A DNA stretch of 50,304 bases, the filler included, from Basidiobolus ranarum (lineage: Eukaryota), in the NCBI GenBank assembly GCA_040143965.1. It is 2 parts of 2 records of this genome, joined end to end, with 100 filler letters (N's around TTAATTAATTAA, not from the genome) between each part and the next. Parts side by side here need not be neighbours in the genome. Positions count along the whole stretch, not along the records: positions 25,280 to 50,304 come from JASJQH010000145.1; 1 more part is not named here. The stretch is one strand, 5' to 3'. Below are positions 1,929 through 50,303 of this stretch, one piece after another. The notes beneath the pieces were generated by a model, which did not search any database, had not been told where the DNA came from, and saw only the letters and a list, made by a program, of their open reading frames with translations. Numbering within the stretch: position 1 is the first letter of the stretch; each line of letters starts with the position of its first letter. Made by a program: the position numbers and the translations under genes.

Positions 1929-5594
<3,666 letters not shown>

Positions 5595-9315: not shown

Positions 9316-12300
9316 TTATATCTCATCATCATGTTTATGAATCTCTTGTTCAAAGAACACATCTAGTTCATCTAAAGTTTCAATCATAGCTTGATATTGA
9401 CGTTCATACTCCTCATCTCCAATTACCTCTTCCTCCATACTATTCTGATTAGCGACTGAAGATTCGCTATTTTCTAGCTGGGTCGAAGAGGTTGTAAAGT
9501 TTGTTGAGTGATCCTGAATTGAAAACTGAAAATGCGAGAAATAGGGAACTTTATCAACACATTCTAAGGCACAGCCATGAACTACTGCCATCACGTTAGC
9601 CCGGGGCAATTTAGCAGTGTGTGATGGGTACCGAATCCACCATCCGGAGGCATGATCCACTGCGAATGTGAAGCGCTCTTGGCCGTTGGAGGTGAAAGGT
9701 AAAGAGGGAATAATATGCTCAGTAGTATGTTCTCTGTTACTCTGATTATTTTTGGTGAAGTTCGAGGTGGTTGAAGTGTTCATTGCTTCTTCCAAGACAG
9801 CAAAGGCATCTTCGGCAAATTCCGTTTGAAGTAAGCGAAGTAAGGGTGCTAAAAGAACAAAGCTATCTTCTTCCGCACACCCAACAGGATCTAGAAAGTC
9901 TACATATGGAAAGGCGACTTTAAGAATCTTGAGAGTATTACGTTTGATCGAATCATTTTGATTAGGGAGCAATTCCAACAGGAATTTCATTGCATCAGAG
10001 GCATATTTCGGAAAATAAGTATCCTTTAATGCGCTAAACAATTGTCGTAAATAATCCTCCTTAGCGCGATAACGTTTTCGACCATACATCAACAGCACTC
10101 TCCCGATATTATCAAGTCCACAAGCGTTGGCTTTTGTTGCAAGTAAATCAGTTATATCAAGATAAGGATTATTAACATGTTGATCTAACGCATCCATGAT
10201 AATAGGCAAGTTTGCTAGGATGGCGAAAAGCATTCTACCTTCTGAAGGATCGATCAACCAACAATCCTCAAATGTAACAAGCCTATTTATCAGTGATAAA
10301 GCTCGGGGTTGAACCTTGGAAGAGACTAAACCTTTGAGGAGTAATGTTTGAAATCCTGGGAACTGGCCATCCCATTCTTCCGGAAAACTGTCCTCTAAAG
10401 AAAGCATCCAGCTTCCATTATCCTCGCCAATGTATTCGATCATCTGGTCAAACATACCTAATGCTTCGGAGTATTCATCCTCGTTGATTGTGCATAGACA
10501 CGCCATAGCTGCCCAAAAAATGTGTGGGAACAGTGGCGAAGTATAAACTTCTACATCGTCTACGATTTTCCTCAGAGTATAGAGAATTTCAAGGCAAAAG
10601 CTTTGGATTTCATCCGAAGTATCTGAAATCGTATTGCTTAGACGAGCAAGTATGTCAGCCAACATAGTCATATCCATGGAGGGCATTAAATGCCTGAATA
10701 TTTGAAAAGAAATGCACGCAATATTGCGCACTGGACAACAGGTAGCCCAGTTGAGAGATATCATCCCCCACTTCTGGCGAATCTGCAAATCCTCATCGAT
10801 CAAAATATCAACCAACTCATTCACAACCTCCGAAATATCCACAGGATTCAGCTCTTGTCTCTCCTGGAGCGGCGATATTTTCAATTTCTGGCAAAAGCTT
10901 CCGGCTTTATCTACGGTAGCTTGATTGTTCGACTTGTCGATGATGATTGAATGGATAAGATTAATCATGAGCTGTCGAGTCTGTTCGCTCACAAGTGTAA
11001 TAAAATGATTGAGATGAACAGAAGCGGCATGAAGTAAAATCGGCAAGTGAGGCTTAAGTAAACCTTCAGCTTCAATGGCAAGATCAGTCAATAAGATGAT
11101 TGCCAGCTGACCTTTAGAAAAAGCAGGGCGCTTGGGATAAAGAACCAAGACGTCATCAATGTTCGCTACAAATAAATATGAAGATTTCTGTCGAGTTTGG
11201 TGATTAGGCGATGAAATGATGTGCGGAATTAGTGTCTCTGGAACAATGGTTGCAACAAATTCGTTGATCATGTTGGTGGCAGCTGGTGTTCGACCAATAA
11301 AGATTATGATTTTTTTAGCATGTACAACGAAGCCTGGATTTCGTTTTTCCAACCCGAGATCTAATAAATATGTAAGAATGACTTTCATATTTTGAGTGTT
11401 ACTACCCACTACAAGTTCAGCCCAGATTGTCTCTATTTCTTTAAAATACACATCTCCATGCTTAATGGTAATATAGAACAAATTAGTCAATACCATAATT
11501 GATAATCCAGAAATAGATCCATCAGTGAAAAACTCTAGCGTCACGTTTCGAATCCAAGGGATCAAAAGGAGTAATGTATCTCTCTTCACGTTCGCGTTCA
11601 CCGATTCGAACCGCATGACTAACTCGGAAAGAAGCTCGTAAGTTAATTCTGGATGATCTCGTGCCAGTTTCCCAGATAAAGCCGCTTGTGCCTGCTTATA
11701 TATGGTTGGTAAATGGCTTTCAATTGTATTCTCGAAATCACGCGCACACCGTACGAGGGTAAACCGGGTTTCAACAGAGCAAAGAAGTTTGATTGCGTGC
11801 AATCTTATTTCAACATTTGGATCCGCGATTTTAAAAAGTGCAAGACAAATTATCTTGTAAGGATAGTATGGGTAGTTCTCTGTTTGCGCTAATACATCGG
11901 CAAGGACTGAAAAACATCCTTGCGTTGACTTTAAATTTGGATTTCCAATATAGCATTCGTGCACAACGTCCTCAAGAAGAAGTGGATGCTTTTGATTGTG
12001 AACAAGCAAAGACTCTAAAGCCGACCTATGAAAGGTTGAACATTAATAAGATGATTAAATTTGATCCAAAAACGAACATTAGGTAATACTTCGCAATATG
12101 GTGAACGCCACCATCGGGACTATTGAAAACAGAATTCATCCACCGAAACAGAGCAACAACATCAAATGAAGCCACACCTTTTTTTGACCTAGAGCGACCG
12201 ACAGTTGTAGTAATAGGACCTTTCTAAATTACATTCCAAGAATAAGAATAACGCGCAAACTAAAAAAATAAGGTGCTTATTACTGACACATAGGGCCGCC

Positions 12301-15300
12301 ATTGCTTTTAGTGCAGCACTTTCCAATCCCTTTCGTTCTTCTTCCATAATTGTAGTCATCGCGCCACGTTCCCGAATATCTTTATATTGGTCTAATACAG
12401 TTAACATCATCCTTGCCTCACGATCTCGAGTGGAAGAGCCGAATTGTCCATGACCACACCAATCTTCAAGCATTTTGAATAAAGATATTCGCAGTTCGAA
12501 CGATATATATCTGGTGGATTCACTGAGTAAAATGATACTATTATAAACTTTCTCCACTAAACCACAAAAATATTTTCGCAATTTTTGAAACTCCCAATCA
12601 GTTTGAACTTCGGGGTCGTAAAGAAAAGATTTACATTCCTTGACGAAACCGACAATGGCATCCATGACAAACTCGTCATGTAAGTGGTTATTATCTTGCA
12701 AATAGTGAGAAGTCGATTGATAAACATGAGCTATTTCTGTGCGCAATCGATCATTCCTCTTGTTACGTTTGTTTTGACTCGGTTTTTGACTATTTTTACT
12801 TTTCGGATCTTCAAAAACACTCTTTGCGAATTGTTCGAGATCTTCTATCAAAACGCGATAAGCGTTGCTGTTAATGTGACCCAAAGCGGTAACAACTGCA
12901 TCTCGAATCGAGGTTTGATCAGATGAAAGAAAAGGCAGTACCATTCTAAAAAGGTCGCGTGCAGAGGAGATTTTCTCAATACTAGCGAAAGCGGAACGTT
13001 TTCGTCGAACGATGGTATTTATTTGTGTGTAGTCGTCAGCCATGGCGATAGTTAAACATGTAAATACCAAGTATATTTTCCACTGCTCTATATATTTGTC
13101 ATTCACTCGTACAACTTTAGAGGCCCATCGATTAGGGAGACTAGGTAAACTCGGTCTACCAGAATTTGTAACATTAGCTGGCTTAGAATAAGTCTCTGCA
13201 GTATGAATTACCAGTGATTGCATGGACAATAGTCTAGAACAGATAATGTTTTGAGTGAGTGCTACGATAATAGGACATTTGTCATAGCATATTTTAATCA
13301 ACACAGGAAAGCATCGAGCCCAGGCAGCCAGGTCTTCAGGCTCACTCTTTGAAGCGATGGAAATCAAAATGGACGTTGTAGATTCCCGCTGACGTTGCTT
13401 ACGAACTTGTTCGGTGACTTGAAGCGCACTAGAAAGTTTACTTCCTCGGCCATAAGTTTTTACGATATTGTTCCCCTCTTGCTCAAGAATATCAATAATA
13501 TGAATTTGCGGTTGTTGGTTTTGAGGTAAATAGCCTTGATCACTGTTAGTGGAAGTCCTTTTTCTTAAGCTCATCGTTTTGTCAAATGTTGCTGAAAGAC
13601 TTAGAATTTCAATTGCGTATTTTCGGATTAAAGGAGATTGATTACATAAGAAAAATATCCCATTAGACTCGGTTTCAGTTATTAAATTCCAAACTTGATT
13701 GTATTTGTTATGGTCTTCTTCTTTATCCAGAGTAAAGTGTAACTCTATATCGCTTTGCCAAACATGAAGTAGCTGCACATATAGGTTTAATAACACAGCA
13801 TCAGATTTCGTATTGCTATCAGAAAATCCGCATGTTAGCAATTCAGCGAAGCGATCTTCGATCTTAATAATAAATCTGGAGAACGTAGACACAACTTTTA
13901 ACGCATCACATTGTTTGGCGATACGAATCAAAGCCTCGGTGGATGCTCGACCTAAATTTGGATCCACATGGATTGTATAGCGACAAAGCATTTCAATAAA
14001 TGTTTGAAGTGGAATGCCAGTAGGCATACATCTGGGAGCAGCCTCAATACACGCTCTCATTAGATCGAAGTAAGGTTGCTTATCTTTCATATAAGACACT
14101 GTTAAACTAGACATATGTACATATGTTTGTTGAACCTCGTAAGTCAACTCTTTAGCAGCATTTGCTATAGCATTGGTGGCCGAGGTGTTTCGATTATTGA
14201 GATATCGTTCGTCACATAAGAGCATTCCACCAAACGATTGATCTAAGATCGTAGTTATTATGCCCAAAATGCCATTCATTTTTTTAAGTGAATCTCTCTG
14301 ACCTATCCGATTCAGAACTTGCCCAGAGAGTACATCGGTATTCGGTTGCGATACAATTGAGAAGTCAGAAGTATATCCACTTTCTCCTCTAGGGAATGGG
14401 GGACGATATTCAGATCGCTCCAGGCTGGATAGAAAAAGTAAATATGCTTTAATAGCAATAACGGTACGTTCTGGGTAAATGTTTTCAATTGTAGGATCCA
14501 AAGTAGAAATATCATCGTAACCTATGAGTGTAGAAGAAACGTACTTCATGACATTGTTTGAATCCCACAAACATATGAAATGAATGGTTTGAATGAAGTC
14601 GTCAAGAGGCGTGTCAGGAGGATTGATCTGTCGTCGTCCGGGTGGGAAAATGGTTTTCAAGATTGTTTCTAACTTTTTGTATATATTGCTGGCGCTTTCG
14701 GTACACCGATTTAAATACACCCATATCAAACGAGTGATACAAGTTAATGCCATCTGCCGAGATCCTTTATCCTGTATAAACGAGATTCAGCTAACAAGAT
14801 CTATAGCACCATCAAATGCAAATAATACCTTGAATCGTTGAATGCACGAATCCATAAAGGCCCACCATTTGGACAAAAAGAACTCTTTGCGACTGACACA
14901 TAAAAGAATTGACATTAAAGGATAAGCCACCTGATGAGATGAGCGTAAGTAAGCTAAATAATAGACAACATTCAAAATCAATTGGCTTACATCCCAATGG
15001 CGCAATTTTGTACACATTTTAAAGGCCTTTGGATAAATACTGTCTATTGTTTCGATCCAAGCCTGAATATTTACCTCTGCCAAGGCAACCTGATGCAAAT
15101 ACAACACTTTTAGTAAAAGATAAAATGATATATCGTTAACAAATTACTGAGCTTACTGCAGCTATAGGAGCCAGCATTTCTACAAATACTTGTGCGTAAG
15201 CATGCTTTATTTTCATACTGCGAGTCGTTTTGAAAAATTTTCCACAGCTCTGGAGAAAATCGGCAGTCTCTTCTAGAGCGTCAGCGGGATATATCTATTT

Positions 15301-19967: not shown

Positions 19968-21169
19968 ATGGCTACTGCATTTTGGGGTAAGGACCAAAGA
20001 CATGAATGTCATTTATACTATGTCCCGATCTTAACAAAATATCAATAGGTCTTCAAATCCTTCCCAACAAGACTTATTCTCAAGTCATTGAGGGTTCTTT
20101 CCGTGTCTCTATGGTAAGTCAACTATATTATACTTTCACTATTTCAAATATTGAACTTTCTTTCAACTCCAAGGCTTCTTTCGGAGAAGAAGTCAAAGGA
20201 AAGCAACGTTCTTGCTTGAAAGTAGTCGTTGATGAACAAACCTATATTTTGTGTTCCTTGACACCAAATAAGGTTGAGCAACAACCCTTGGATATTATCT
20301 TCACTGAGGGTGAAGAGATTACTTTCTCCGTTAATGGCGAGAAGTGTGTATATTTTTAGTATTCGTAAACGTATCTTTGTGTCTATACTAACTTAATTTA
20401 GTGCTATTCACCTCACCGGTAACTATCTTCCCGATGACGAGGAGCTCGACTTCGATGAGGAAGATTTTGACAGCGAAGAAGAGTATGTATTAAAAAATTG
20501 TGTTCAATAGCTGTGTCACAATCTGATCTATTTTGGTCATGTAGAGATGATATTAACGCCATGATGGAGGAATCAGAGGAGGAGTCGGAAGAAGAGGAAG
20601 AAGAAGAGATTCCCGTTCCAGCTAAGAAGCGTAAGCAGCCAAATGGCGTTGCTAAAGAGGAAGCACCCAAAAAGAAATCCAAGGAGGAGAAGGTCGAAGT
20701 CAAGCAGACTAAGAAGACTGAAGCTCCCAAACCTAAAGCCGAGGCCAAGAAGGCTGAAGCTGCTAAACCCAAGGTCGAGGAAAAGAAGGCTGAGAAGAAG
20801 AAGCAAGAGAAGCCCGTAAAGGATGAACCTTCTACTAGAACTCTACCCGGTGGACTTGTTATCGAGGACAAAACTGTTGGTAGCGGTGTTGCTGCCAAGA
20901 GAGGAAACAGAATCGGTATGCGTTATATTGGTCGCCTTACCAATGGTAAGATCTTCGATCAAAACACTAGCGGTAAGCCTTTCTGGTTCCGTCTTGGTGC
21001 TGGTGAAGTTATTTCTGGTTGGGACAAGGGTATCGCCGGTATGAAAGCTGGTGGTGAACGTAAATTAACTATCCCTGCTGCTCTTGCCTATGGTAGCCGT
21101 GGTGCTCCTCCTGATATTCCTGGAAATGCTACTTTAGTTTTCGAGGTCAAACTTGTCCAAATTAAATAG
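19968..21169 (+). CDS. FPR4: Nucleoplasmin-like domain + acidic/basic linker + FKBP PPIase (Fpr3/Fpr4/FKBP39-type histone chaperone)
   Basis: Spliced N-terminus [50 protein letters not shown], then an acidic tract and a Lys-rich tract. The C-terminal FKBP domain has canonical [27 protein letters not shown]. Confidence 0.92.
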
Positions 21170-25279: not shown

Positions 25280-25281
25280 GC

Positions 25282-27066: not shown

Positions 27067-28556
27067 ATGTCCACTCCCAACATTATTTCCATCAGAGTAG
27101 GTCCGTAAGGCTTCATAAAAGTTCCTTTTCCTCTTTATTGTTTATTTAACCATATATTTCTATTTTAGACAAGAGTCAAAAGCGCTTTACCCCTAAAATC
27201 AAACAACGAACCTCAAGAAAGGTAACTGCTACCAGTCCCATACCTGACAGTCAACCTGATGGTGAAAACAAAAACCATGGGGATTATTTGGAAATAGGAA
27301 CTCCTACCCGATGCGGTCCAACCAATTCCTTTCAATCTCAAGCAACATTAACTAGTAAGTGGAGTCTTGATTCACCCATATCTACACCCCCAACTACTTT
27401 CAACTGAAGTGACATATTTAATATATCGACAAGACTAACCAATATATTTTAGTCGAAATAACTCCAGATGGTCATCACACCTCGTACTTTTCCGAAAATT
27501 CAATTCTATCTTCCATCTCCAATACAACCTCCGCCGCATTTTCTCCTTTGCCTTCGCCCACACCTCTGCATATAGTAACCCCTACACATGTACACACACC
27601 TTCAAAGGGCACTCTTATTTCTGTCCCCAGTGTTTCTCAATCCTCTATTTCCGACAAATATGAACCTTCTAAAAAGCAATTGAACTTGGGAGAACGGGAA
27701 CACTCTCCTGAGACACCTACAAAGAAAAGGAGAAAGTCCAAAACCCTTGATGATATCAAAGAGTTGGAAGATTATGATAAAGAAGAGCAACCCGATTTCT
27801 CACACGTTCCTCTCTATGTATTTTGTAAGGACATGAAGCGTGGTAAACCTACAAAGGCATTTATTGAAAAAGAGAAGGCAAAGGTAGAGAAACGAAAGAA
27901 GGTTCAACAAGCAACACCTCCAGCCACACCTGAATCTACCCACGATCGAGACATGAAAGAATCACTTCTTGAAACACCCAACTCACAAGAGAAGTAAGAA
28001 ATCCCTATCTAAGAATGCAGTGAATCCTTTCAAGTAAGATCAGTCATTAACTTTATGAAATTTTTAGTTCTTTTGCTCCTCAGATGCGGGTTGTTGGTGG
28101 CAAACTAGTCCTCGATGATACGTCTCTTTTTGTGGAACATTGCGAGTTAAACAATACCCAAAGCCAAAACCTAGATGTGGTTGAGGAGTCTGCTGCTGAC
28201 CGCTATGTAAACAGCGGTACATATCTGAAGCGGATCAAATCTCAACGCTGGACTCCAGAAGAAACAGAAATGTTTTACCAGGTAGATATCATTGTGTGTG
28301 ATGTTTCGATCTGTCAGTGATGCTAATACATTTATTCTCTTACTAGGGATTGGCCAAGTGGGGTTCAGATTTCAGTCTTGTCGCCTCTATGATTCCTGGT
28401 CGTACACAAAAGCACGTTAAATACAAATTCAAGAGGGAAGAACTTCACAACCTTCAACGTATTAATGAAGCTTTGCTCCGACGCAATCCAGGTGTATCCA
28501 TGGTAAAGGAAAAACCACCAACTGGGCGGAAGAAGAGCAATTCTGTAGAAAGCTAG
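27067..28556 (+). CDS. BDP1: TFIIIB subunit B'' (Bdp1), SANT/Myb-like domain, multi-exon
   Basis: N-terminal RV|DKSQKRFTPKIK, then FAPQMRVVGGKLVLDDTSL, VVEE..RYVNSGTY and the SANT-like RWTPEETEMFYQ|GLAKWGSDFSLVASMIPGRTQKHVKYKFKREE. Confidence 0.88.
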
Positions 28557-37785: not shown

Positions 37786-39728
37786 TCATCCACTTTCGGT
37801 TTTCATCTTTTTGGTACCCGGTACCTCCTCAGGGTGTTCTCCATTTTCTCCGGTCCCTTCACTCCCAGGGTCACTAGTTGGTTACAAAGTTAAGTATATG
37901 GTGGTTACAGTTTTCACACTAAATGATTCACTCACCTTTCTCGTTTGGATAACGGTGATGGTTGCAAAACTCTAGGTGGTAGAGGCCATAAGAAGGTACC
38001 ACCGCTAGTTGGAGTTGCATTTACAGTGAGTGGACTTGGAAGTTCATTCGATTGATTATAAAATTCCGGATAGAAAGTGGAAGGAGATGGAAGATTTTGT
38101 GCGAATTGTGACATAGTAGCAGAAGCAGGTCTAGATGCATCTTGTGTACGAATAGCTGGAAGCTAAATTATAGAAAATTGATACCCGAGGTAAGTAAATA
38201 TTTCAATGAATCTTCTCGAAATTACTTACTATTTGTCCACTGGTAATGGGTTGTGGTTCTCGTTTGCTAACTGGACTATGGGCTGAGGTTGGTTGCGGTG
38301 AATGAAGATTTGTCTGGGGTGAGGTCAAATTGGTGGGTGTGGAGTTCATATTGGTCACTTGAGGGGAGTTTTGACTTTCACTATTGGCTGAGAATTGAGA
38401 AGGAGTGTGTTGAGGCTTCTGATCTGGGATTTGCACACGTAATCTAGGTCGACCTTTCCCAGTAGCCTGCTGACTTTCCTGGTGATTTTCATTCGAATCA
38501 GGCGCGGGTTCGGCGGGTTGAGGCTGGGGTGACGGTTGTGGAGAAGGTTGCTAAAAAAATTGAAAATAATGAATAAATACACCAACTTTGATGCTATTTG
38601 ATGGTGAATATCAACCTGTACTGCTTGACTAGATTGTGGTGATTGTGCTGCATAATACGACTGGTTTACTTGGGATGTTTGTTGTTGAGGTGGAGGAGTC
38701 TCACCATTCGATTGAAACTGAGATGGTTGCTGTTGTTGTTGTTGGTGCGGACGTTGATGTTGCATATGTTGAAGTTGAGGTTGAGGCTGAGGAACAGGTT
38801 GATAAAATTTCTGTTGAGAGACTTGACTTATGCTCTGCATTTGGTGAGACTGCTGAATACCCATTACTGGCATGGGCTGCATTTGTTGATGAACTTGATT
38901 CATATTGGAAGCGAAATTATATGCGTTCATATTAATAGTTTGAGGATGTGTTTGAGGTGGGTTGATAAATCTGGGATTAAGTTGGTTTCCCGTATTTTGC
39001 ACTTGGTGATGTTGAGGTTGGATTTGTTGTGGCATCAAGTGTTGTTGTTGCTGTTGCCCTTGGGATGGATGGTTGTGACTTGATAATGTTGGCTGGGTTT
39101 GGAATTGAGCCTTGGATGTATACTTCATCAAGGAAGTTAGTGACCAGTGCAAATATAATGGAAGACATAATAGAGCATGGTCCATACTTGTTTCGTATCC
39201 ATAGAATCACCAAAATCAGGTGGTGGATTATCATCATCCATATGACCATTATTCTTAAGAAGATTGTCAAACTAAAACACGAAAAATACGGTCAGAACGT
39301 TCATTTGCGTAACAATACACACCAGTTATAACAATACTTACATCTTCATTTCTACGACTTTCATGTGGCTCGTTATACTATGATCATAGAGAAATTAGAT
39401 AGATCCAAAAAGAAGACAATATTATACTTTAGTCCAACCAACCTCGGTGTATTTCATTAATATCTTGTCCATATCAGAACTAGCATATTGAACTAATTTG
39501 TTTTGTGAATTGAAAATGATCAAACCGATTTCACATTCGCATAACACGCTCAGTTCGTACGCCTTTTTCATCAAGCCAAACTTTCTCTTGAGAAAAGTAA
39601 CCTTTTCGAAAAATAGAGAGGAAGTTTAGCAGGGAAAGAAAGGTTTGGGTTTGTCACAACTATGTCCAGTTTACCTGTTTGTTGCGTTCATCTAAGATGG
39701 GCTTAATCTCAATTTTCTTACGACCCAT
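37786..39728 (-). CDS. RLM1: MEF2-type MADS-box transcription factor (Rlm1/RlmA-like), multi-exon
   Basis: [72 protein letters not shown], a Gln/Pro-rich activation region, the MAPK-docking-like RPRLRVQIP and C-terminal [16 protein letters not shown]. Stop TGA at 37786-37788. Confidence 0.92.
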
Positions 39729-40640
39729 ATTTGTTGTTAGGTATATTTAGTAGTACAGATACAGAACCGTGGTAGGAAGTGGGATATGTATTGAAATGCT
39801 AAACTACAGATGATGCAGATAAACGAATGATAACATCAAGTTAGGATATTATAGTTAGGTCAAATAATAAAGGGTTTTGGTTTCGAAAGTTCACGTTAAG
39901 AAATATTATTATCGCGAAAGCTTACCAACGTGAGGGATAGGATATTCTTGGATTCGAAGTAAAACGGTGCAAGTTGGTGTATAAGGTTTGTTCTTTTTTT
40001 AGGACCAAATTATGAAAGGGGTGTTGCTATACTTATCTGACATGCTTAAAATAACTCTTGGTCTTTTGAGGAAAAAAAAATGGATTGGTGCTGGTGATTA
40101 ATTGGGCTGCTCTGCAAACGATTCCTACTTAATTGGCACCCTCACCAAGATGCTCCCTATATATTTGCATTCTATTAAAACATCTCGCTGATTGGCTCTA
40201 CTGTGTATATAAATATATATATGTCTCCCACCACTCCTTGACTTTTGGTCCCTTGGATTCACTCTGTAACCATAAAAATAGCCCTTAGCGAGGTAGAGAA
40301 CAATGTATTCTGGTATAAGCTGGTGGGTATTCCGGCATACACATCGATTTTGAGTATGTTTCTATTGAGCAAGTGAATATTCATGCTCGCTCTGCTCCTA
40401 CTTGTATATAATCAGTCAAAACCCACTTGCCAACCATGAACTTTGTACATACAACGGCCATAGTTACGAGATAGCTAATAGCATGTCGTTGCTTATTCTA
40501 CTACTCATTTGGTAAACATATATAATGTAAATGGTGTACTTTATTGTTACGATGGTTTCTCTCGTATTCAGATAATGTATAATAGGTAGTGATTTTTAAC
40601 TTGGGAATGAATGAAAACTGAGTTTACATTGATAACATCC

Positions 40641-42150: not shown

Positions 42151-45100
42151 ATGAAGCTGATATCTGTATCTTCTGTTAACGGTTGTATCTATGGTGTGCT
42201 TCTAAATCTCTTCTTTCACTCTTTAACTTGCTCAGCGGCTTCCTCTCAACCAACACTTGCCACCAGTTTAATTACATCCTTGAATGCTCGCGCGACACCT
42301 TCTAACTCTCTGATAGGCTTGAGTAGCCATACTCCCACACCCACAGTCTCTCCTTTATCACAAGGATTGGATTTTACTCAGCTCACCAGTACTGATATTA
42401 CGACGGTTGAACAATGCCCTGGCACTTCGGTAAAGCGTTACTTCATAGAATAGCTTAGATTGTGAGTTTACTTACACCGGCATTTCTATAAATCATCTTT
42501 GTAGCCTGAATATAACGATAGATGTATCTGCGCACGAACAAAGCACTGGACTTGTCCAGCAGGGTAATATTCCTCGAGATTTGGCCTATTTCGAGATGAT
42601 CATTCCCTTTCCTCTAATTTATTCCATTGAACTTTAGATACTTTTGTCAAAAGCCTGGGGAAAAGATCAAGTGTACCGATGGATTCTATTGTCCAGAGAA
42701 TACATTTCAGCCATCCTTTTGTTGTCCAGGATACTACTGTTCAACCAATACAACGGTAATCAAATTGTGCGAGGAGGGAATGTTTTGTCTTGCTGGTAAG
42801 TATCTTCGATATTCCACATCTTATCTGGGATAAAGTTTATTGGGGCCAAGTTGCACTTTCATGAATGTTCGCTTAACTATCTTTATGTTAGGCTCGACCA
42901 AGCCATTATCGTGTATTCTGGGATACTGTCCTGCTGGATCGTTTACAATCCGAAAATATAATATATTCTTGATCTTTCTTATCCTTTTGCTAGTGGCAGC
43001 GATGTTCTTTGCCTTTAGAGCTAGAAGGATACGTTACAGGCAATTAAAATACGCTATAAGAATCGAAGGGATTCAGAAAACCAAGAAACCATTTATGGAA
43101 AGATCTTCCACTTTGTCGAGAGTTAAAAAAAGGTTCGAAATTCAATTTGAAGATATCGGACTTCGTCTACCTAATGGCGTGGAGATTATGAAGGTATCTC
43201 TTCTTTTGCTCCCAATCCTTGTGTGATTTCTACGAGCTCTTTCCTAACTGAAATCCATATCACCTAGGGAGTGTCTGGAGAGTTGCGTCCAGGTAGAACT
43301 TGTGCCATCATGGGTCCATCTGGTGCAGGAAAAACAACCTTCATTTCTCTTCTAACTGGAAAAGTACGAAAGACTAATGGCGAGATAAAAATCAATGGCA
43401 AGATTGAGGATCTGTCGAAATATCGAAGGCTCACCGGCTTCGTACCTCAGGAAGATGTGATGTTACGGAAACTAACTGTACAAAGTATTCTCATGCACTC
43501 GGCGAGAATGCGACTTCCCACTGAATGGACCACCGCTACGAAGAAAAATAAGGTACTTGAGGTAATAGATTACCTCGGATTGAGTCATATTATGAATTCT
43601 ATCATTGGTGATGAAGAAGAACGGGGAGTTTCGGGTGGACAACGAAAAAGAGTTAACATTGGAACAGAGGTAAGGAGGTGGCATCACGGTCCGTTCGAAA
43701 AGAATCGCAGTCACTAAATGGACCCATTTTCACTTTCAGTTGGTAGCCGAGCCTTCGATCCTGTTTTTGGATGAACCAACATCAGGTAGGATATTTTCAA
43801 GATACGTTGCGAATGCCATAAATTTACACCTCATATTTTAGGTCTAGATTCTTCCACATCCATGGAAATATGCACTCTTCTTTCTAGAATTGCGCATTAC
43901 CAAGGGCTTACCGTTGCTGCCATTATTCACTCACCCTCTCCTGTGGCCTTTGCTAAGTTTGATGATCTAATGCTGTTAGGAAAGGGGGGCAGATTAATCT
44001 ACTTGGGGCCCAGGGAGGAAGCTGGAGGATACTTTTCTAGTATTGGTTTTGAGTGCCCTCAAGACGCCTCACCTGCCGATTACTACATGGATGTGGCGTC
44101 GGGTAAAATCCCGTGTAAACTTAATCCAGATTTTCATCCATCCGATCTTTTCGAGATGTGGGAGAAGAAGAAAGAAGGAAAGCTCCCAGGATACCGACTG
44201 AGCATCGGCTGCCAAGACTCCAAGTTAGATCCCACATCATTGTCAAGCCCAAGTAAAGGGTCAAGGTTTACGCAGGCCCTCAATGGTATCAAGCTTGCCA
44301 CAATAAGCTTATTTAATGATACATATTACTGGTTTCATTCTGTCTTCGTGGAACTATTAATGACTTTCGTATCTATATATCGATACATTACATGCCATTC
44401 AGATGCGATTCGAAATACTCCTGGTCCATTTCAGGTATTTTGGCTTTGTCTTCGAAGAGCCTGTCATCAAGTGATACGAAGCAAAAGTGAATTCTTTATA
44501 GATCAGCTGCTACATCTTGGCGCAGGTATGCAATATTCAAAACATGCTGTTGCTCTTCACATTACTAATGCCACTACTCTCAGGGCTATTCATCTCTATT
44601 GCTGCTCAGAAGGCAGTTTATCTCGGACCTCTACCAGAAGAAGTGTGCTCCTACGCTCCACTGCCTTTACAACAGCGATGTGCGTTACCGTATTCAGATA
44701 TGGTGCGGAATATTGGCAGTTTTGTGGCTTGGGGGATAGGCTTCGCAGGTATCGCTTCAGGGGCTGGGACCTTTGGTAATGAAAGAGTAGTATTCTGGAG
44801 AGAAACTGCTTCAGGAATGCCTACTCTTCCATACTTCTTAGCCAAAGCTATATCAGACATTCCACGTATAGTATTGGCCTCTTTAATGTTCACGTTGGCA
44901 TTTATCATAAATTATGCAAATAATACTTCGATATGGAGACTTTATGTAATAACTCTTTCCCTATATTTTGTGGGATTTAGTACTGGTAATTTATCCATCT
45001 CTTCCAATAATCCAACTGTTCATTCCTGACATTTCAGTCCCGGTTAAACAGGATATTTCATCTCTGCCTTGGTGAAGAAAGAGCAGGCTGCTCTTGTGGG

Positions 45101-45599
45101 GGTTGTTATTGCGTTGGTCTGGGCTATTGGTAGATATACATTCTAGCTTACTAGTGAGCTTTGAGAATCTTATTAACACTTGATATTATAGCATTTAGTG
45201 GTGTAGAGCCATCCCTCAACAAGGTTTACGAAGATTATCCACCTAGTATAAGATGGATCTGGGACGTAAGTGTATCATAGTTGACTTTTTACAAGAAATG
45301 TAGGCTCAATTGTTCCAAATATGCTTATAGATATCTGCTCCAAGATGGGCAATTAGTGCTTTCTACATAGCGGAAACGGATGCTAGAAAGTAAGGAACAT
45401 ATATTTAACAGAATATGAAGAGTTATTGTTGAGCTTATTTTATTTCAGTTACTTCCGTATTGAAAGTGGGCGAAACTTCTATGGCTATGTAAATGATGCT
45501 TATTGGTCAGATATACGGAATGTATTCATCATCGCAGCTGGATACCAAGTTCTAGCATTTTTCGCTCTGAAACTATCCCATCGTGATCGTCAAACCTAA
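42151..45599 (+). CDS. ABCG (White-type) half-transporter with signal peptide and Cys-rich extracellular N-terminal domain, multi-exon
   Basis: Hydrophobic leader, a Ser/Thr-rich stretch, Cys repeats (CTDGFYCP, CCPGYYC, CEEGMFC, YCPAG) and a TM helix. The NBD has Walker A GPSGAGKT, Q-loop GFVPQEDV, signature VSGGQRKRV, Walker B LFLDEPTSGLD and IIHSP. The C-terminal TMD contains ERVVFWRETASG. Stop TAA at 45597-45599. Confidence 0.9.
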
Positions 45600-45694
45600 C
45601 CCTATTTGGTAATAAAGGTTATTTTATACCAACAGTGTTTTAATCTAAAATGAGAGGAATTAAAAAAATCAATTAGACATTTAATAAAATAAAT

Positions 45695-47567
45695 CGGATG
45701 ATCGCAAAAAATTGGAGATAAGTGAAGACACATGGCAAAAGAAACTTACTCTGTATCAAATGTTTAGTGTAGCACCAACCACACAGGATTGTTTGATTTT
45801 TTCGTTGGTCGACCGCTGCTAGCTGATGAGATAACCTTTCTTTTATATCCGGTAGAGAGAGGTTCCTTCAATCTGCAAAAACGTTCTGGTCTTTCCCCAG
45901 TTGAGCGCAAGTTAAAAAGGATATGTCAAAGTAGCAGCCAGTTTACGATTCCAAAGACGATGGTGAGAATCTTCAGTAGTATTGGCCACGACTTTTAAAC
46001 ACTATTGGTTTTTGCACCTGAATAGAAATTAGGTTTGAATTTTTTACTCGCATATAAAAAGCGTTTACCTTAAAAAGACGTGACGATATACAATAGGATA
46101 CTTTTCTCCTTTGTATGGTCTAGGATTTTGGACTTTTTGAAACTTTTCAAGTATACCGTTCTGGCAAGTAGGGCACAGACTTGAAGTTTTAAATTCGTCC
46201 AGGAGGTATAGCTGGAAGCCTTCTTTGGCTAACATTTTTCTCATTCTGACGCCTCTATTGGGCTCATGATACTTTACATTTCCAGTCGATTAGTTACCAA
46301 GTATTAATATAGTATCATTCCCAAACTTCTCTTGAAGGTTCTTGGCAAGCCGTTTGTCTGATTGTAGTTGGTTAATGAAACTTGAGAGTTTAATTTTTCT
46401 AAAAGGTAACAAACCGCTGGTACGCTGGTCTTCTCCTGCAGGGCAATCTTCATTTCAGTAATACGCTCTCATGACCGGAGTAACTTTGGCTTTTTCTTGA
46501 AGATACTTGACAAACTTGTCTTTGTTGGCAGTTGAAGATTTCAGATGTGATAGGGAAAGCTCAGCTGCGATGACTTGGTCTGTCTTTAAGTTCTCTCTGA
46601 GCTTCCTGAATTTTCTGTATTTTGTTTCAATTGCTTTTTGGTGGCTTGTATATCGGTAAACCATTTTGTTTTCAGCAGTACTTTCTTCGTGCATACAGTA
46701 CAGCAAATCGCGACATCCAGGATCAATTAGCACACATTTGCCAACACCGGCCTTCAACTCTTCTCTTCCCAACTTCTCCACATACTGAAACTCCTCTTCT
46801 GAAGCAAGAGACTTTGACTTTGCACCACTGCCACCGCCATCCTTCTTCGTATCGTGGTTTTGCTTTAACACCGACACACCTACACCATTTGTGTACATCA
46901 TACCTCTAAACTTCGTGGACTTCCTTTTTCCTAGTGGTTTCATTGCCTTTGCTTGACCTTCTTTATATGCTCTGTTATAGTCTTTATGGCTGCCCTAAGC
47001 TCTTTCTCGCTTCCCCCATTCTTCTTCATTTCGCTTTCCAGTGCCTTGATTCTCTCATTCTTCTTCAAGAGCAAGTTAAGAAACATTCTAACTTTGTTTC
47101 CGAATTGAAGTTTGGCCCCGTTCGGATAAGCAGTGACAATTTTTGCCACTTCATAAGAAGCTATCTGATGAGCATACTTCATGTTGACTGGTTCGTCAGA
47201 GCAGCACTGACGATACTTGAGTATTAGAACTTTTTAGGATCTTGAGTCTGTCGAAGCTTTCTGTTTGTCTGACTTGTAGTTATTGAGGAGTGACGAAAAG
47301 ACTTCTTTAAAAAAGCTAACATTAATGTAATCCTCCAAAAGAAATGCAGAATTATATTCCAGTTCATGAGTAAAGATGTACTTCAAAAAGGAAAATGTCT
47401 GTGACACAAAGGTATGAACGTTAGCTACAAGTGACATGAGTTGTGGAACATATTGTGGCTTCTACCTAATACCAGCGATTGAGCTTTTGACTGCTATAAT
47501 CTTTAGAGGTGGTTCCATAAAGAGAAGAAGAGAAAAAGCGAATTGACCTCTTTTTTAGTTTACGGAT
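45695..47567 (-). mobile_element. Non-autonomous, decayed Fanzor (TnpB-derived) element, about 1.87 kb
   Basis: Contains a broken Fanzor ORF. The putative boundaries are the same 5-mer ATCCG on the minus strand at 47567-47563 and 45699-45695. No transposase ORF or terminal inverted repeat is visible, so the ends are tentative. Confidence 0.7.
45764..47518 (-). pseudogene. Fanzor (probably Fanzor1-type) RuvC/Zn-finger RNA-guided nuclease pseudogene with one spliceosomal intron
   Basis: N-terminus MEPPLKIIAVKSSIAGIR*KP..LVANVHTFVSQTFSFLKYIF..FFKEVF, QIASYE..KIVTAY..FGN and FRGMMYTNGVGVSV (cf. TDGV). RuvC-I is VLIDPGCRDL (D at 46722-46724). ILGN*S..HEPNRG leads to RuvC-II LDEFKTSSLCPTC (E at 46194-46196). 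Intron 46068-46018 precedes R|CKNQ*C. The RuvC-III region reads RLWNRKLAA (D replaced by K at 45942-45944), then HILFNLRSTGERPERFCR. Stops at 47462, 46455, 46290 and 46002, plus frameshifts and an internal deletion near 46940. Confidence 0.85.
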
Positions 47568-48159
47568 AGAAAAGTTTGTTAAACATATACTCTCAATTTT
47601 GTTGGTTCACTTTTCTCATAGCAGGTGCAAGATTGGTGGCTTAGGCACCAGAATGAATGCTAACATGAGAGTGTGGTGGGTATATAATTAATAATCATAA
47701 ATGATGGCGCTCTGTCTATATGCATACGATTGACAAATAATGCTATATATTTTCACATTCCTCTTCATGTTCCCATCGCTGGTTGGCTAATAATATACAG
47801 TCACTCCAAGTTCATGCTTGAACCGTAACCCGAATTTGAACCATATTGGGATTTTATCTCAAGCAGTTGGTCAAGGTGGGGAAAGGCGGGGAATACTCTT
47901 ACTTATTAGGAACTCCAAATCATTTACATTGGTTCAGCAAATAAGAACCTTGAACTCGACACGTGAGTCAAATGCCAAGTCTATAAAAATTTACACCAGT
48001 ATTTATTCTCCATTTGAGCTAACAGTATCTTAGAACCTACTTCACCACTAAAGTCTTATAATCATGAATAATGTTGTCTCTAATCACCATTTCACTATAC
48101 CTATTAATCTTATATCTCTCGAGGAAACTTTTTTCGTTACTTTATGCTGATTTAATTGG

Positions 48160-49129
48160 ACATTTACTTGTTGAAATCGTTTTGGTAGCTGGGAAAAATA
48201 TGCGGCCTACTTTCTCGTAGAGGCTTTTACCTTGATAGGAAAGCTTGAAATGCTTTTGTTAGTATTCGAAGGTGACATGAGTATTGGACTTTCTCATGTC
48301 AAAGGAGCTTTTTCTCAAGCATTGCTTATCGCATTGACTGGAACCTTGTTACCTTTCGGAGTAGGTACTTTGGTGTGCCACTTTCTCTTTAAATTTGGCT
48401 TACTCGAAGCGGTCATATCTTCTGCTTCATTGGCAAGTACCTCTATTGGAATCATAATAATAATTTCAAGTCAGCAAGGTATAACGAAGACTACTTTTGG
48501 CGTACTCATCATGATTGCTGCGTTATTAGACGATGTCTTTAGTTTAATAATTCTTGCGGTTATGAAAGAGATTGGTCCTATTATGAATGGTACTCATGAT
48601 ACAGTACAGCCTTGGCTAATAGCTCGTCCATTTGTGGTTTCAGTGGGATTCATTCTACTAGCTTTCGGGTGTTTCTTTGATTTAAAACTCGCTGCAAGTT
48701 CCTTCAGTAGAAACTTTCTCGACCTTTCCACTTTAGAGAAGGATACGTTGCCTAATGCATATTCCAGCAGTCCAAGGAAAGCTTCCAATTAGGCCGATGA
48801 TAAACAGCATTGCTATACATATCAGCTTAAAATATTTCTACTATCAAATGGGTTCCTTAATCGCGCTATCCTACTCTTGATTCTTGTAGTTGATTGTGTT
48901 TTCTGTTCTTGTTGAAATACTGGGCAGCTCAGAACTTCTTGGAGCTTTCGTAGCAGGGTTCATATTTGCCCCATATTCACTTCCAATTGACCTTTTTCAT
49001 AGTCATGTTCACCCAATCATAACTTTGACAACACCAATTTTCTTCTCATCTATTGGATTCATCGTACCCGTTTCATCCCTTTTCAATGCAGAAAATCTTT
49101 GTTGTCACTGTTTCTTGGTTATATTATAA
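48160..49129 (+). pseudogene. Cation/H+ antiporter (CPA2/Kef-like, Na_H_Exchanger family) remnant
   Basis: IGKLEMLLLVFEG, TGTLLPFGVG, ASLASTSIG, AALLDDVFSLIILA, GSSELLGAFVAG and PIFFSSIGF.VP are recognisable. There is an in-frame TAG at 48790-48792, a frameshift before 48890, a broken 5' part and no C-terminal helices after 49129. Confidence 0.75.
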
Positions 49130-49784
49130 CTCTTTTACATCTAACATTTATGGAGAAAGAGCACCAAGCGATATGTTATCCAAAAATGCCATGTACATAG
49201 CGTTGTTTTAGAGGTCTACAAAGAATCAATGATAGACCTCATGACCAGGATCTCCATAGTTGAGAAGAAGCATTATAAGGTAGTAACCTCTTATGTCCCA
49301 GCGTTATACATCTGCAGCTTTGTAGTTTTTTCTTTCTATCCATTGCAGCACTAATGGGGTCTGACACTCGTTAGGTCTGAGATGAAGTATTTTTGTGACA
49401 TAAAATATTGATCTGATATGTCAGACATCCAATGGCAGCATTACTAGCTATGGTAACGGAGAGCAAATTAGAAAAAGATGCAAGGAGCTACTTGTGAACC
49501 CACCAGCAAAGAGTATGCTACAGATCTAAGTGCTAGATTAGTATATAAGCCCGCGACCAGTTACTATGTAGCACAAGTGATGGTGAACTTCAGAGACTTG
49601 GCCTCGATAAATTATCGAAAAATATGGATAGAAAAAATATTTAAGGGTAGATTGAATCTTTAATTTAATATCTTTAACGAATAATCTATTGTCAAGGAAT
49701 GTATGGAAATTATTCCCAGAATCTTGTTCATATGTTAGAATATATTTGTGGGTTGGAATCAGTTTTATGGTAGTATGAATACAC

Positions 49785-50303
49785 TCAGTATTTATAAGCT
49801 GAACCGCCTCCATTGCCACCGTAATCACCGCCAGATCCACCACCACCATATTCACCACCTTCACCGCCTCCATCACCTCCATAGCTATTGCCAGATCCAC
49901 CACCACCACCGTATTTGCCACCTTCACCTCCTCCGTTGCCTCCATAATCACCTCCACCACTATATTTGCCGCCTTCGCCTCCTCCATTACCACCGTAGTC
50001 ACCGCCGGATCCACCACCACCGTATTTATCACTTTCCCCTCCTCCGTGACCGCCGTATTCAACGCCTGATCCGCCACCACCACCATATTTGTCACCTTCA
50101 CCACTTCCTTTGCCCCCGTAATCACCGCTTGATCTACCACCACCACCGCCATAATTACCGCCTGATCCACCACCACCACTATATTTGCCACCTTCACCAC
50201 CTCCATTGCCTCCGTAGTCACCGCCGGATCCACCACCACAACATCCGGCATATATGCCGCCTGCACATACTACGGGGCCTCCATAAACTCCGCCAGAACA
50301 AGC
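49785..50303 (-). CDS. 3' part of a Gly/Tyr-rich repetitive structural protein with a Cys-containing segment (runs off window)
   Basis: The likely true frame (not the ORF-track frame) is ACSGGVYGGPVVCAGGIYAGCC followed by about 7 repeats of GGGSGGDYGGNGGGEGGKY and ending GGSAYKY*. Stop TGA at 49785-49787. Repeats vary mainly at third codon positions in this frame. Confidence 0.8.
   Translation of the reverse strand, partial: ACSGGVYGGPVVCAGGIYAGCCGGGSGGDYGGNGGGEGGKYSGGGGSGGNYGGGGGRSSGDYGGKGSGEGDKYGGGGGSGVEYGGHGGGESDKYGGGGSGGDYGGNGGGEGGKYSGGGDYGGNGGGEGGKYGGGGGSGNSYGGDGGGEGGEYGGGGSGGDYGGNGGGSAYKY

Follow-up and report, generated by a model that had tools for sequence, protein, structure and literature searches.

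The Fanzor1 locus

The sequence analysed here, called the window throughout, is a stretch of 50,304 nt from Basidiobolus ranarum (assembly GCA_040143965.1) that consists of two parts joined by 100 filler letters; positions 25,280 to 50,304 come from record JASJQH010000145.1. On the minus strand of this part, positions 45782-47518 hold a row of reading-frame pieces split by stop codons, which is the coding remnant of a Fanzor1 gene. We compared the six minus-strand frame pieces with the sequences of solved structures (HMMER, PDB chains). Five of the six match, in collinear order, the chain 9cf0_P, which is the MBP-tagged Parasitella parasitica Fanzor 1 (PpFz1): 47234-47461 aligns with chain residues 531-592 (E=5.8e-5), 46940-47233 with 619-692 (E=1.6e-14), 46455-46994 with 820-981 (E=1e-31), 46290-46454 with 1093-1132 (E=6.6e-8) and 46065-46289 with 1135-1206 (E=2e-18). 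Two pieces also match Spizellomyces punctatus Fanzor 1 (SpuFz1, chain 8gkh_P; E=1.2e-11 and 4e-4), and the C-terminal tail piece has no match among the PDB chains. Collinear Fanzor1 matches of this kind are far beyond chance.

Searches of curated profiles with the same six pieces gave, in Pfam, a sub-threshold match to Cas12f1-like_TNB (PF07282) as the best result (E=0.0095, 16.5 bits vs a cutoff of 26.3) and, in NCBIfam, no TnpB match and nothing relevant. Pfam likewise returned no family for four full-length relatives; PF26935.1 is annotated for 25 of 27 relatives, and this model is probably newer than the Pfam copy that was scanned. WD40 rows obtained for the exon-2 piece were rejected as repeat artefacts, each single stretch having an i-Evalue >500. 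A reading made earlier from the sequence alone (the sequence-only reading) had described the locus as a Fanzor fossil, the remnant of a TnpB-derived RuvC nuclease. The collinear matches to PpFz1 and SpuFz1 bear this out and assign it to Fanzor1, and the profile-search check on the translation placed the pieces in no other family.

The family start codon is the ATG at 47518, where the alignment begins at residue 1 of the relative P0009. The proximal part of exon 1 (46952-47518, frame -3) encodes the N-terminal region and is 56% identical to P0009 residues 1-193 (tblastn), and the distal part (46069-46951, frame -2) encodes the TDGV-like strand, the RuvC-I IDPG motif and the RuvC-II Glu together with the first Cys pair (DEFKTSSLCPTC). 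The start of exon 2 (45921-46017, frame -2), with the second Cys pair and WNRK, aligns to PpFz1 chain residues 1207-1234. It leads into a C-terminal piece (45782-45925, frame -3) that reads '...ILFNLRSTGERPERF...KRK...TKK', a basic tail which is 66% identical to residues 528-577 of the Rhizopus protein P0001 (tblastn). Every motif named in the sequence-only reading was thus located on the minus strand: the N-terminal region, TNGV, IDPG, DEFKTS-CPTC, the second Cys pair, WNRK and the basic tail.

Where relatives read YTDGVGVSV, the window reads YTNGVGVSV. The Asp of the RuvC-I stretch 'CVLIDPG' aligns with SpuFz1 chain residue 777, which is D383 given a tag offset of 394, and the Glu of the RuvC-II and zinc-finger stretch 'LLDEFKTSSLCPTC' (DEFKTS) aligns with chain residue 935, which is E541 (both alignments counted by hand). 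The catalytic residues of SpuFz1 are given as D383, E541 and D606 in PMC11423790. At the third site, RuvC-III, the window has WNRK and the relatives and both solved proteins have WNRD; the Asp of this motif in P0001 aligns with SpuFz1 chain residue 1000, which is D606. Loss of the RuvC-III Asp is consistent with the decay of a former Fanzor1 member. Both halves of the C4 zinc finger (TNB domain), CPTC and C-x4-C, are there, with a stop codon between the cysteines of the second pair ('CKNQ*C'), and the translation aligned with relatives closes in the basic C-terminal tail '...STGYKRKVISSASSGRPTKKSNNPV'.

Lesions and the zinc-finger intron

Lesions were scored against L001, a metagenome contig that carries a relative of this Fanzor gene (pairwise DNA alignment), and against protein relatives. 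Five in-frame stop codons interrupt the gene (47462-47464, 47234-47236, 46455-46457, 46290-46292 and 46002-46004). At the junction 46951/46952 a clean loss of 358 bp removes ~119 codons and 1 nt and shifts the frame: L001 positions 2800-3157 are without counterpart in the window, and 85-120 residues of the protein relatives are unmatched at this point (tblastn). The frame shifts again through an 8-nt deletion near 45931, and further in-frame indels measure 12, 3, 12 and 6 nt. The copy is dead and cannot make a Fanzor1 protein any more, as had been supposed from its stops, a D-to-K change and a large internal deletion, the last of which is now measured.

A gap opposite PpFz1 chain residues 981-1093 was considered as a further deletion and rejected. 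It corresponds to PpFz1's own FRI insertion of ~100 aa (chain ~987-1091), described in PMC11423790 and absent from the window and the aligned Rhizopus relatives; it is not a lesion because those relatives are collinear with the window there. The L001 copy itself has a 1-nt frameshift near its position 2424 (in L001:2220-2490), a region where the window is in frame with P0009. This frameshift accounts for the internal Met at which the annotated R. arrhizus protein P0001 begins and for its lack of the N-terminal ~115 residues of P0009.

The zinc finger is split by a 51-nt GT-AG intron in phase 2 (46018-46068, minus strand; GTAAAC...TATTCAG), which contains CCTAAT. Exon 1 ends at PpFz1 chain residue 1206 and exon 2 resumes at 1207, and the protein is therefore continuous across the junction; in tblastn with P0001, the intron appears as a 17-codon insertion in the window. 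The corresponding site in L001 is occupied by a GT-AG intron of 59 nt, without whose removal the frame would be lost, the two L001 exons lying in frames +1 and +3. In addition, the gene models P0009, P0020, P0008 and P0021 end or derail right after 'HGLLR', as expected if gene predictors read into an intron at that point. The spliceosomal-type GT-AG intron postulated earlier is upheld on these four grounds, and its site is conserved in the family. Introns and nuclear localization signals in Fanzor genes have already been described (PMC10530073). The zinc-finger intron, 51-59 nt long, is an old and conserved trait of this Fanzor1 lineage.

The carrying element and its divergence

In L001 the Fanzor gene lies inside a 2,860-bp unit with 135-nt terminal inverted repeats (TIRs), whose arms at 1721-1855 and 4446-4580 are 89% complementary. 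The product of the L001 gene is identical to R. arrhizus P0001 at 488 of 490 residues in the first exon and at 90 of 90 in the second. To judge from this organisation, the Fanzor1 gene is carried in a eukaryotic TIR transposon. The ends of L001 can be read either as TA or as an imperfect 9-bp duplication (6/9), from one complete copy only; the Rhizopus Fanzor1 family ROr-4 is reported from MuDR-like elements with 9-bp duplications (PMC3627910).

Homology to this element extends slightly beyond the coding remnant, for which the interval proposed earlier is adequate, and covers 45634-47526. On the 3' side lies a TIR remnant (45634-45726, minus strand). The L001 segments 1724-1775 and 4533-4577, an inverted pair, both match 45634-45684 in blastn, and therefore the window keeps the 3' terminus of the element; sensitive blastn carries the match to ~45726 at ~74% identity. 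Between this TIR and the coding remnant is a degenerate 3' untranslated remnant (45727-45781, minus strand; 33/48 identical to L001, with gaps of 36 and 34 nt). On the 5' side the last homology is a run of 8 nt upstream of the start codon (47519-47526, minus strand), the L001 blastn match beginning at 47526. The copy is 5'-truncated: its 5' untranslated region and 5' TIR are gone and only the 3' TIR survives. A pattern search for the 5' TIR gave two matches, the 3' terminus itself and a site with three mismatches at 20951 (0.2 expected by chance), sensitive blastn with L001 found no 5' TIR, and among inverted and direct repeats within 45400-48300 there was no terminal repeat pair.

A three-way alignment of the termini shows the outermost ~28 nt of the TIR (45634-45661) to be near-invariant and the inner TIR to have indels of 34-36 nt. 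The outer ~28 nt would be the part likeliest to be bound by a transposase or to form the end of an omegaRNA scaffold. Two other features were observed in the metagenome contigs. Upstream of the Fanzor element, L001:908-1234 contains a perfect 43-nt inverted repeat (975-1017 / 1192-1234) and a third related arm (908-940), and may be a small insert resembling a miniature inverted-repeat transposable element. A second contig, L002, holds at 440-1351 a truncated Fanzor fragment that is 83% identical to window 46050-46507 and adjoins unrelated sequence; its homology stops inside the intron.

At the DNA level, the exons of the window copy and L001 are 85.5% (485/567), 83.5% (735/880) and 79.1% (189/239) identical, the intron 80.4% (41/51) and the TIR 75.0% (72/96), and just outside the element identity falls to 54.5% and 57.1%. 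Third codon positions are 75.9% identical (134 differences in 555, or 24.1%), and first and second positions differ by 14.1% and 11.4%. Third positions are more divergent than the first and second, and therefore part of the divergence arose under selection and part by decay.

Relatives, tree and host flanks

The 179-aa core piece has 27 longer relatives, 26 of them from Mucorales (Rhizopus arrhizus, R. delemar, R. microsporus, Helicostylum, Pilaira and Mucor) and one a further JGI protein, with a best identity of 76%. The wider family of P0001 counts 2,735 representatives at E<=1e-3, 1,530 at E<=1e-10 and 323 at E<=1e-30. Among the 150 representatives listed, the closest to the fossil is P0119 (81.8% over 165 aa). 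P0119, P0122 and P0178 are short hypothetical proteins (195, 181 and 158 aa) from three B. ranarum loci.

We built a tree from frame 46071-46955, with X at its two stops, and relatives (36 rows, 294 columns, LG+G4). The window groups with the three B. ranarum rows in one clade (98/96), and the R. arrhizus/delemar clade (100/99) is the sister of this group (91/82). Next outward come a Phycomyces fragment, the R. microsporus clade and P0009; Helicostylum lies outside this branch (95/95), followed by Pilaira and a Mucor/Parasitella pair, with the Fanzor of Coemansia (Zoopagomycota) far off. In a quick tree without the B. ranarum rows, the window again stands next to R. arrhizus/delemar. Identity to the window row is 78.6% for P0119, 76.0% for R. 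arrhizus, 65.1% for R. microsporus, 58.3% for Helicostylum, 53.3% for Pilaira, 45.3% for the Parasitella-containing cluster and 38.9% for Coemansia.

Approximately unbiased (AU) tests rejected Basidiobolus and Coemansia as one clade (p=0.00019), the inner Mucorales rows with P0009 as a clade without Basidiobolus (p=9e-5), and an inner Mucorales clade that excludes both Basidiobolus and P0009 (p=2.6e-8). A clade of all 16 Rhizopus rows was rejected weakly (p=0.019), and one of the Rhizopus rows with the Phycomyces fragment and P0009 was not rejected (p=0.057).

The genes on both sides of the element resemble those of a different lineage from that of its relatives. An ABC-2/ABCG-type transporter gene (42639-45599, plus strand; Pfam ABC2_membrane_7 / ABC2_membrane), whose stop codon is 35 nt from the element terminus, is 77.6% identical to Basidiobolus meristosporus P0028 over all exons. 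On the other side, ~550 nt from the fossil, a Na+/H+ exchanger gene (48071-49099, plus strand; Pfam Na_H_Exchanger) is 86.5% identical to B. ranarum P0046 over all exons. No Mucorales protein is among the listed matches of these genes (18 for the transporter, 3 for the exchanger). The host flanks are thus Basidiobolus-like, with 81-86% as the overall range for the two genes, while the relatives of the element are Mucorales, a point absent from the sequence-only reading.

Comparison with known systems

The copy is most like the Fanzor1 of R. arrhizus/R. delemar (the kin of P0001, and L001), with 76% protein identity over the RuvC core and 79-85% identity of exon DNA, and with the intron site, the TIR terminus and the C-terminal basic tail in common. 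It differs in its Basidiobolus-like host, in being stop-ridden, and in the missing 358 bp, 5' untranslated region and 5' TIR. With PpFz1 (PDB 9cf0-9cf3) the window is collinear over the N-terminal region, RuvC-I, RuvC-II, the TNB zinc finger and RuvC-III, and the intact relative P0001 matches PpFz1 at E=1.6e-140; by analogy, the window family would share with PpFz1 omegaRNA-guided cleavage of double-stranded DNA that depends on a target-adjacent motif (TAM). Apart from the FRI insertion, PpFz1 differs in its identity to the aligned window pieces, which is ~42-52% (hand count of midlines), and the cluster with the Parasitella member P0059 falls outside the Rhizopus/Basidiobolus group in the tree. 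SpuFz1 (PDB 8gkh), on whose D383 and E541 the RuvC-I D and RuvC-II E of the window fall, as does the NRD of P0001 on D606, is much more distant from the window, as the E values above indicate.

Bacterial TnpB (IS200/IS605, IS607) and Cas12f have the same RuvC and zinc-ribbon layout, for which the motif D...[TS][TS]xx[C4]...RD is given in PMC3627910. In contrast to these, the window copy is interrupted by a spliceosomal intron, lies in a eukaryotic host and belongs to an element with TIRs in place of IS200/605 ends, and it falls below the curated profile thresholds. At 78.6%, 71.3% and 71.6% identity, the B. ranarum proteins P0119, P0122 and P0178 have lineage-specific residues in common with the window copy and fall into one clade with it, but they are short fragments at other loci, and P0122 has RuvC-II and Cys motif changes of its own.

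The suggestion that the locus represents an uncharacterised programmable nuclease family is not borne out, given the 76% identity to Rhizopus proteins and the match to PpFz1. It fails because PpFz1 has been characterised, with solved structures, a 5'-ATN TAM and a 75-nt omegaRNA (PMC11423790), and because four Fanzor1 families, ROr-1 to ROr-4, were listed for R. oryzae RA 99-880 in 2013 by Bao & Jurka (PMC3627910, Table 1). By its sequence relationships, the locus classes as a member of a known Mucorales Fanzor1 lineage.

Origin of the element

We are confident, if short of certain, that the locus is a dead, 5'-truncated, non-autonomous copy of a Fanzor1 TIR transposon of the Mucorales lineage that was horizontally transferred into the Basidiobolus lineage. 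The fuller history, in which a Fanzor1-carrying TIR transposon crossed between Mucorales (the Rhizopus lineage) and the Basidiobolus lineage, multiplied and died out, we consider likely. In its presumed order, an element of the Rhizopus-type lineage would have entered the Basidiobolus lineage by horizontal transposon transfer and multiplied there, after which all sampled Basidiobolus copies would have decayed. In live relatives, Fanzor1 binds an element-encoded omegaRNA and cuts DNA beside a short TAM, using a single RuvC site (D-E-D) with the help of the C4 zinc-finger TNB domain, a mechanism shown for PpFz1 and SpuFz1 and not for the window copy. As for a viral vector, 27 pattern matches in the viral_contigs set gave 0 confirmed relatives, in a scan that reaches close relatives only.

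The element tree conflicts with the host tree. Neutral sites saturate between phyla, and set against this established knowledge, on which the host side of the comparison rests, the neutral-site identity of the element is too high for the divergence of the hosts. The same contrast counts against vertical inheritance, in which Basidiobolus and Mucorales both retained a family that their common ancestor already had, since a pseudogene cannot hold 80% intron, 75% TIR and 76% third-position identity across a phylum-deep split. Vertical descent has in its favour that Fanzor1 is old and widespread in fungi according to PMC3627910 and PMC10530073, that Coemansia, another Zoopagomycota fungus, has a Fanzor1, and that Basidiobolus has no stable position, with PMC10079182 citing one study that makes it sister to Mucoromycota. 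Yet the window and R. arrhizus (76.0%) are more alike than are R. arrhizus-type copies and those of Helicostylum or Pilaira (the window itself being 58.3% and 53.3% identical to the latter two), the window is far closer to R. arrhizus than to Coemansia (38.9%), and AU tests rejected the vertical topologies (p=0.00019 and 9e-5). We therefore regard vertical inheritance as improbable.

Still less credit is due to an assembly chimera or contamination, that is, Rhizopus DNA misjoined into a Basidiobolus contig. Rhizopus is a common contaminant, and the locus is known from an assembly, but Basidiobolus-like genes stand on both sides, within 35 nt and ~550 nt, in one continuous sequence; the fossil is 15-25% different from the Rhizopus-type element and has private lesions, and three separate B. 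ranarum loci hold fragments with the same lineage-specific residues. It is just as hard to believe that the locus still works, for instance as a gene that was domesticated or is read through, or by supplying a guide RNA. The codons for the RuvC-I Asp and the RuvC-II Glu survive and the outermost ~28 nt of the TIR have hardly changed, features that such a role could account for, but the copy has five stops and two frameshifting deletions, has lost ~119 codons and the third catalytic residue, and gives no RNA structure signal.

Several points weigh against horizontal transfer as formulated here, or limit its detail. The locus is known from the assembly alone; the identity of the host rests on two flanking genes, and the Rhizopus origin of L001 was inferred from protein identity only. 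The codon-position differences show that the time since the transfer is not small. The groupings for the AU tests were defined with the tree already in view, and short length leaves the three B. ranarum rows with residues in 39% to <60% of the retained columns. Nesting inside Rhizopus is not significant (p=0.057, and p=0.019 in the looser test), and therefore the tree does not fix a direction for the transfer. Fanzor elements seem mobile among Mucorales too, as the cluster described below indicates, so the element tree need not mirror species trees. For the window element we found no target-site duplication, 5' TIR or partner transposase. Folding of the 3' terminus gave no support for omegaRNA structure (z -1.2 and -2.1), the consensus fold of the terminus amounts to -1.6 kcal/mol with 6 invariant pairs and no covariation in 3 sequences only, and Rfam returned 0 matches.

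The cluster in question, formed at 90% identity, is a Fanzor1 cluster (P0059 / P0220 / P0221) with members from both Parasitella parasitica and Rhizopus delemar. It suggests very recent sharing of a Fanzor element between the mycoparasite and a host genus, which matches a speculation in PMC11423790.

Taken together, we consider it probable that a Fanzor1 element passed horizontally between Mucorales and Basidiobolus, with direction and date unsettled. What is new here, the Basidiobolus-like flanks and the B. ranarum clade nested among Mucorales Fanzor1 copies, points to horizontal transposon transfer.

Remainder of the window

The rest of the window consists of ordinary eukaryotic housekeeping genes. 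At 9316-14786 (minus strand) lies a gene with two very long exons for a MOR2/PAG1 (Furry-like) cell-morphogenesis protein, and with NAP, FKBP, RRM and glycosyltransferase genes it makes up a gene-dense housekeeping region with short introns. Three open reading frames of 191-283 aa (38358-39206 and 49541-50269 on the minus strand, 27422-27994 on the plus strand) went unmatched in Pfam at E<=1e-4. GC skew peaks strongly, at 0.274, in 38001-40000. A scan for bacterial promoters and terminators, irrelevant to the Fanzor1 locus, showed no enrichment (8 found vs 7.2 expected).

Implications

No indexed paper pairs Fanzor with Basidiobolus, although supplementary Fanzor catalogues may list such copies. 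Basidiobolus genomes are rich in transposable elements, and the passages of PMC5751038 that describe them leave this Fanzor element unmentioned. For the discovery of genome-editing tools the locus adds nothing, as the family is known, a close relative has been characterised and the copy is dead. Its value is evolutionary, as a physically anchored example suggesting the horizontal spread of Fanzor1 between deeply separated fungal lineages, and it is relevant to how Fanzor nucleases came to be so common among eukaryotes. A second point of relevance is the mixed gene content on account of which Basidiobolus, described in PMC10079182 as a rogue taxon with genes in common with Mucoromycota, is difficult to place. 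If the transfer is real, it would represent a datable cross-phylum spread of an RNA-guided nuclease element among fungi of shared soil, dung and gut habitats.

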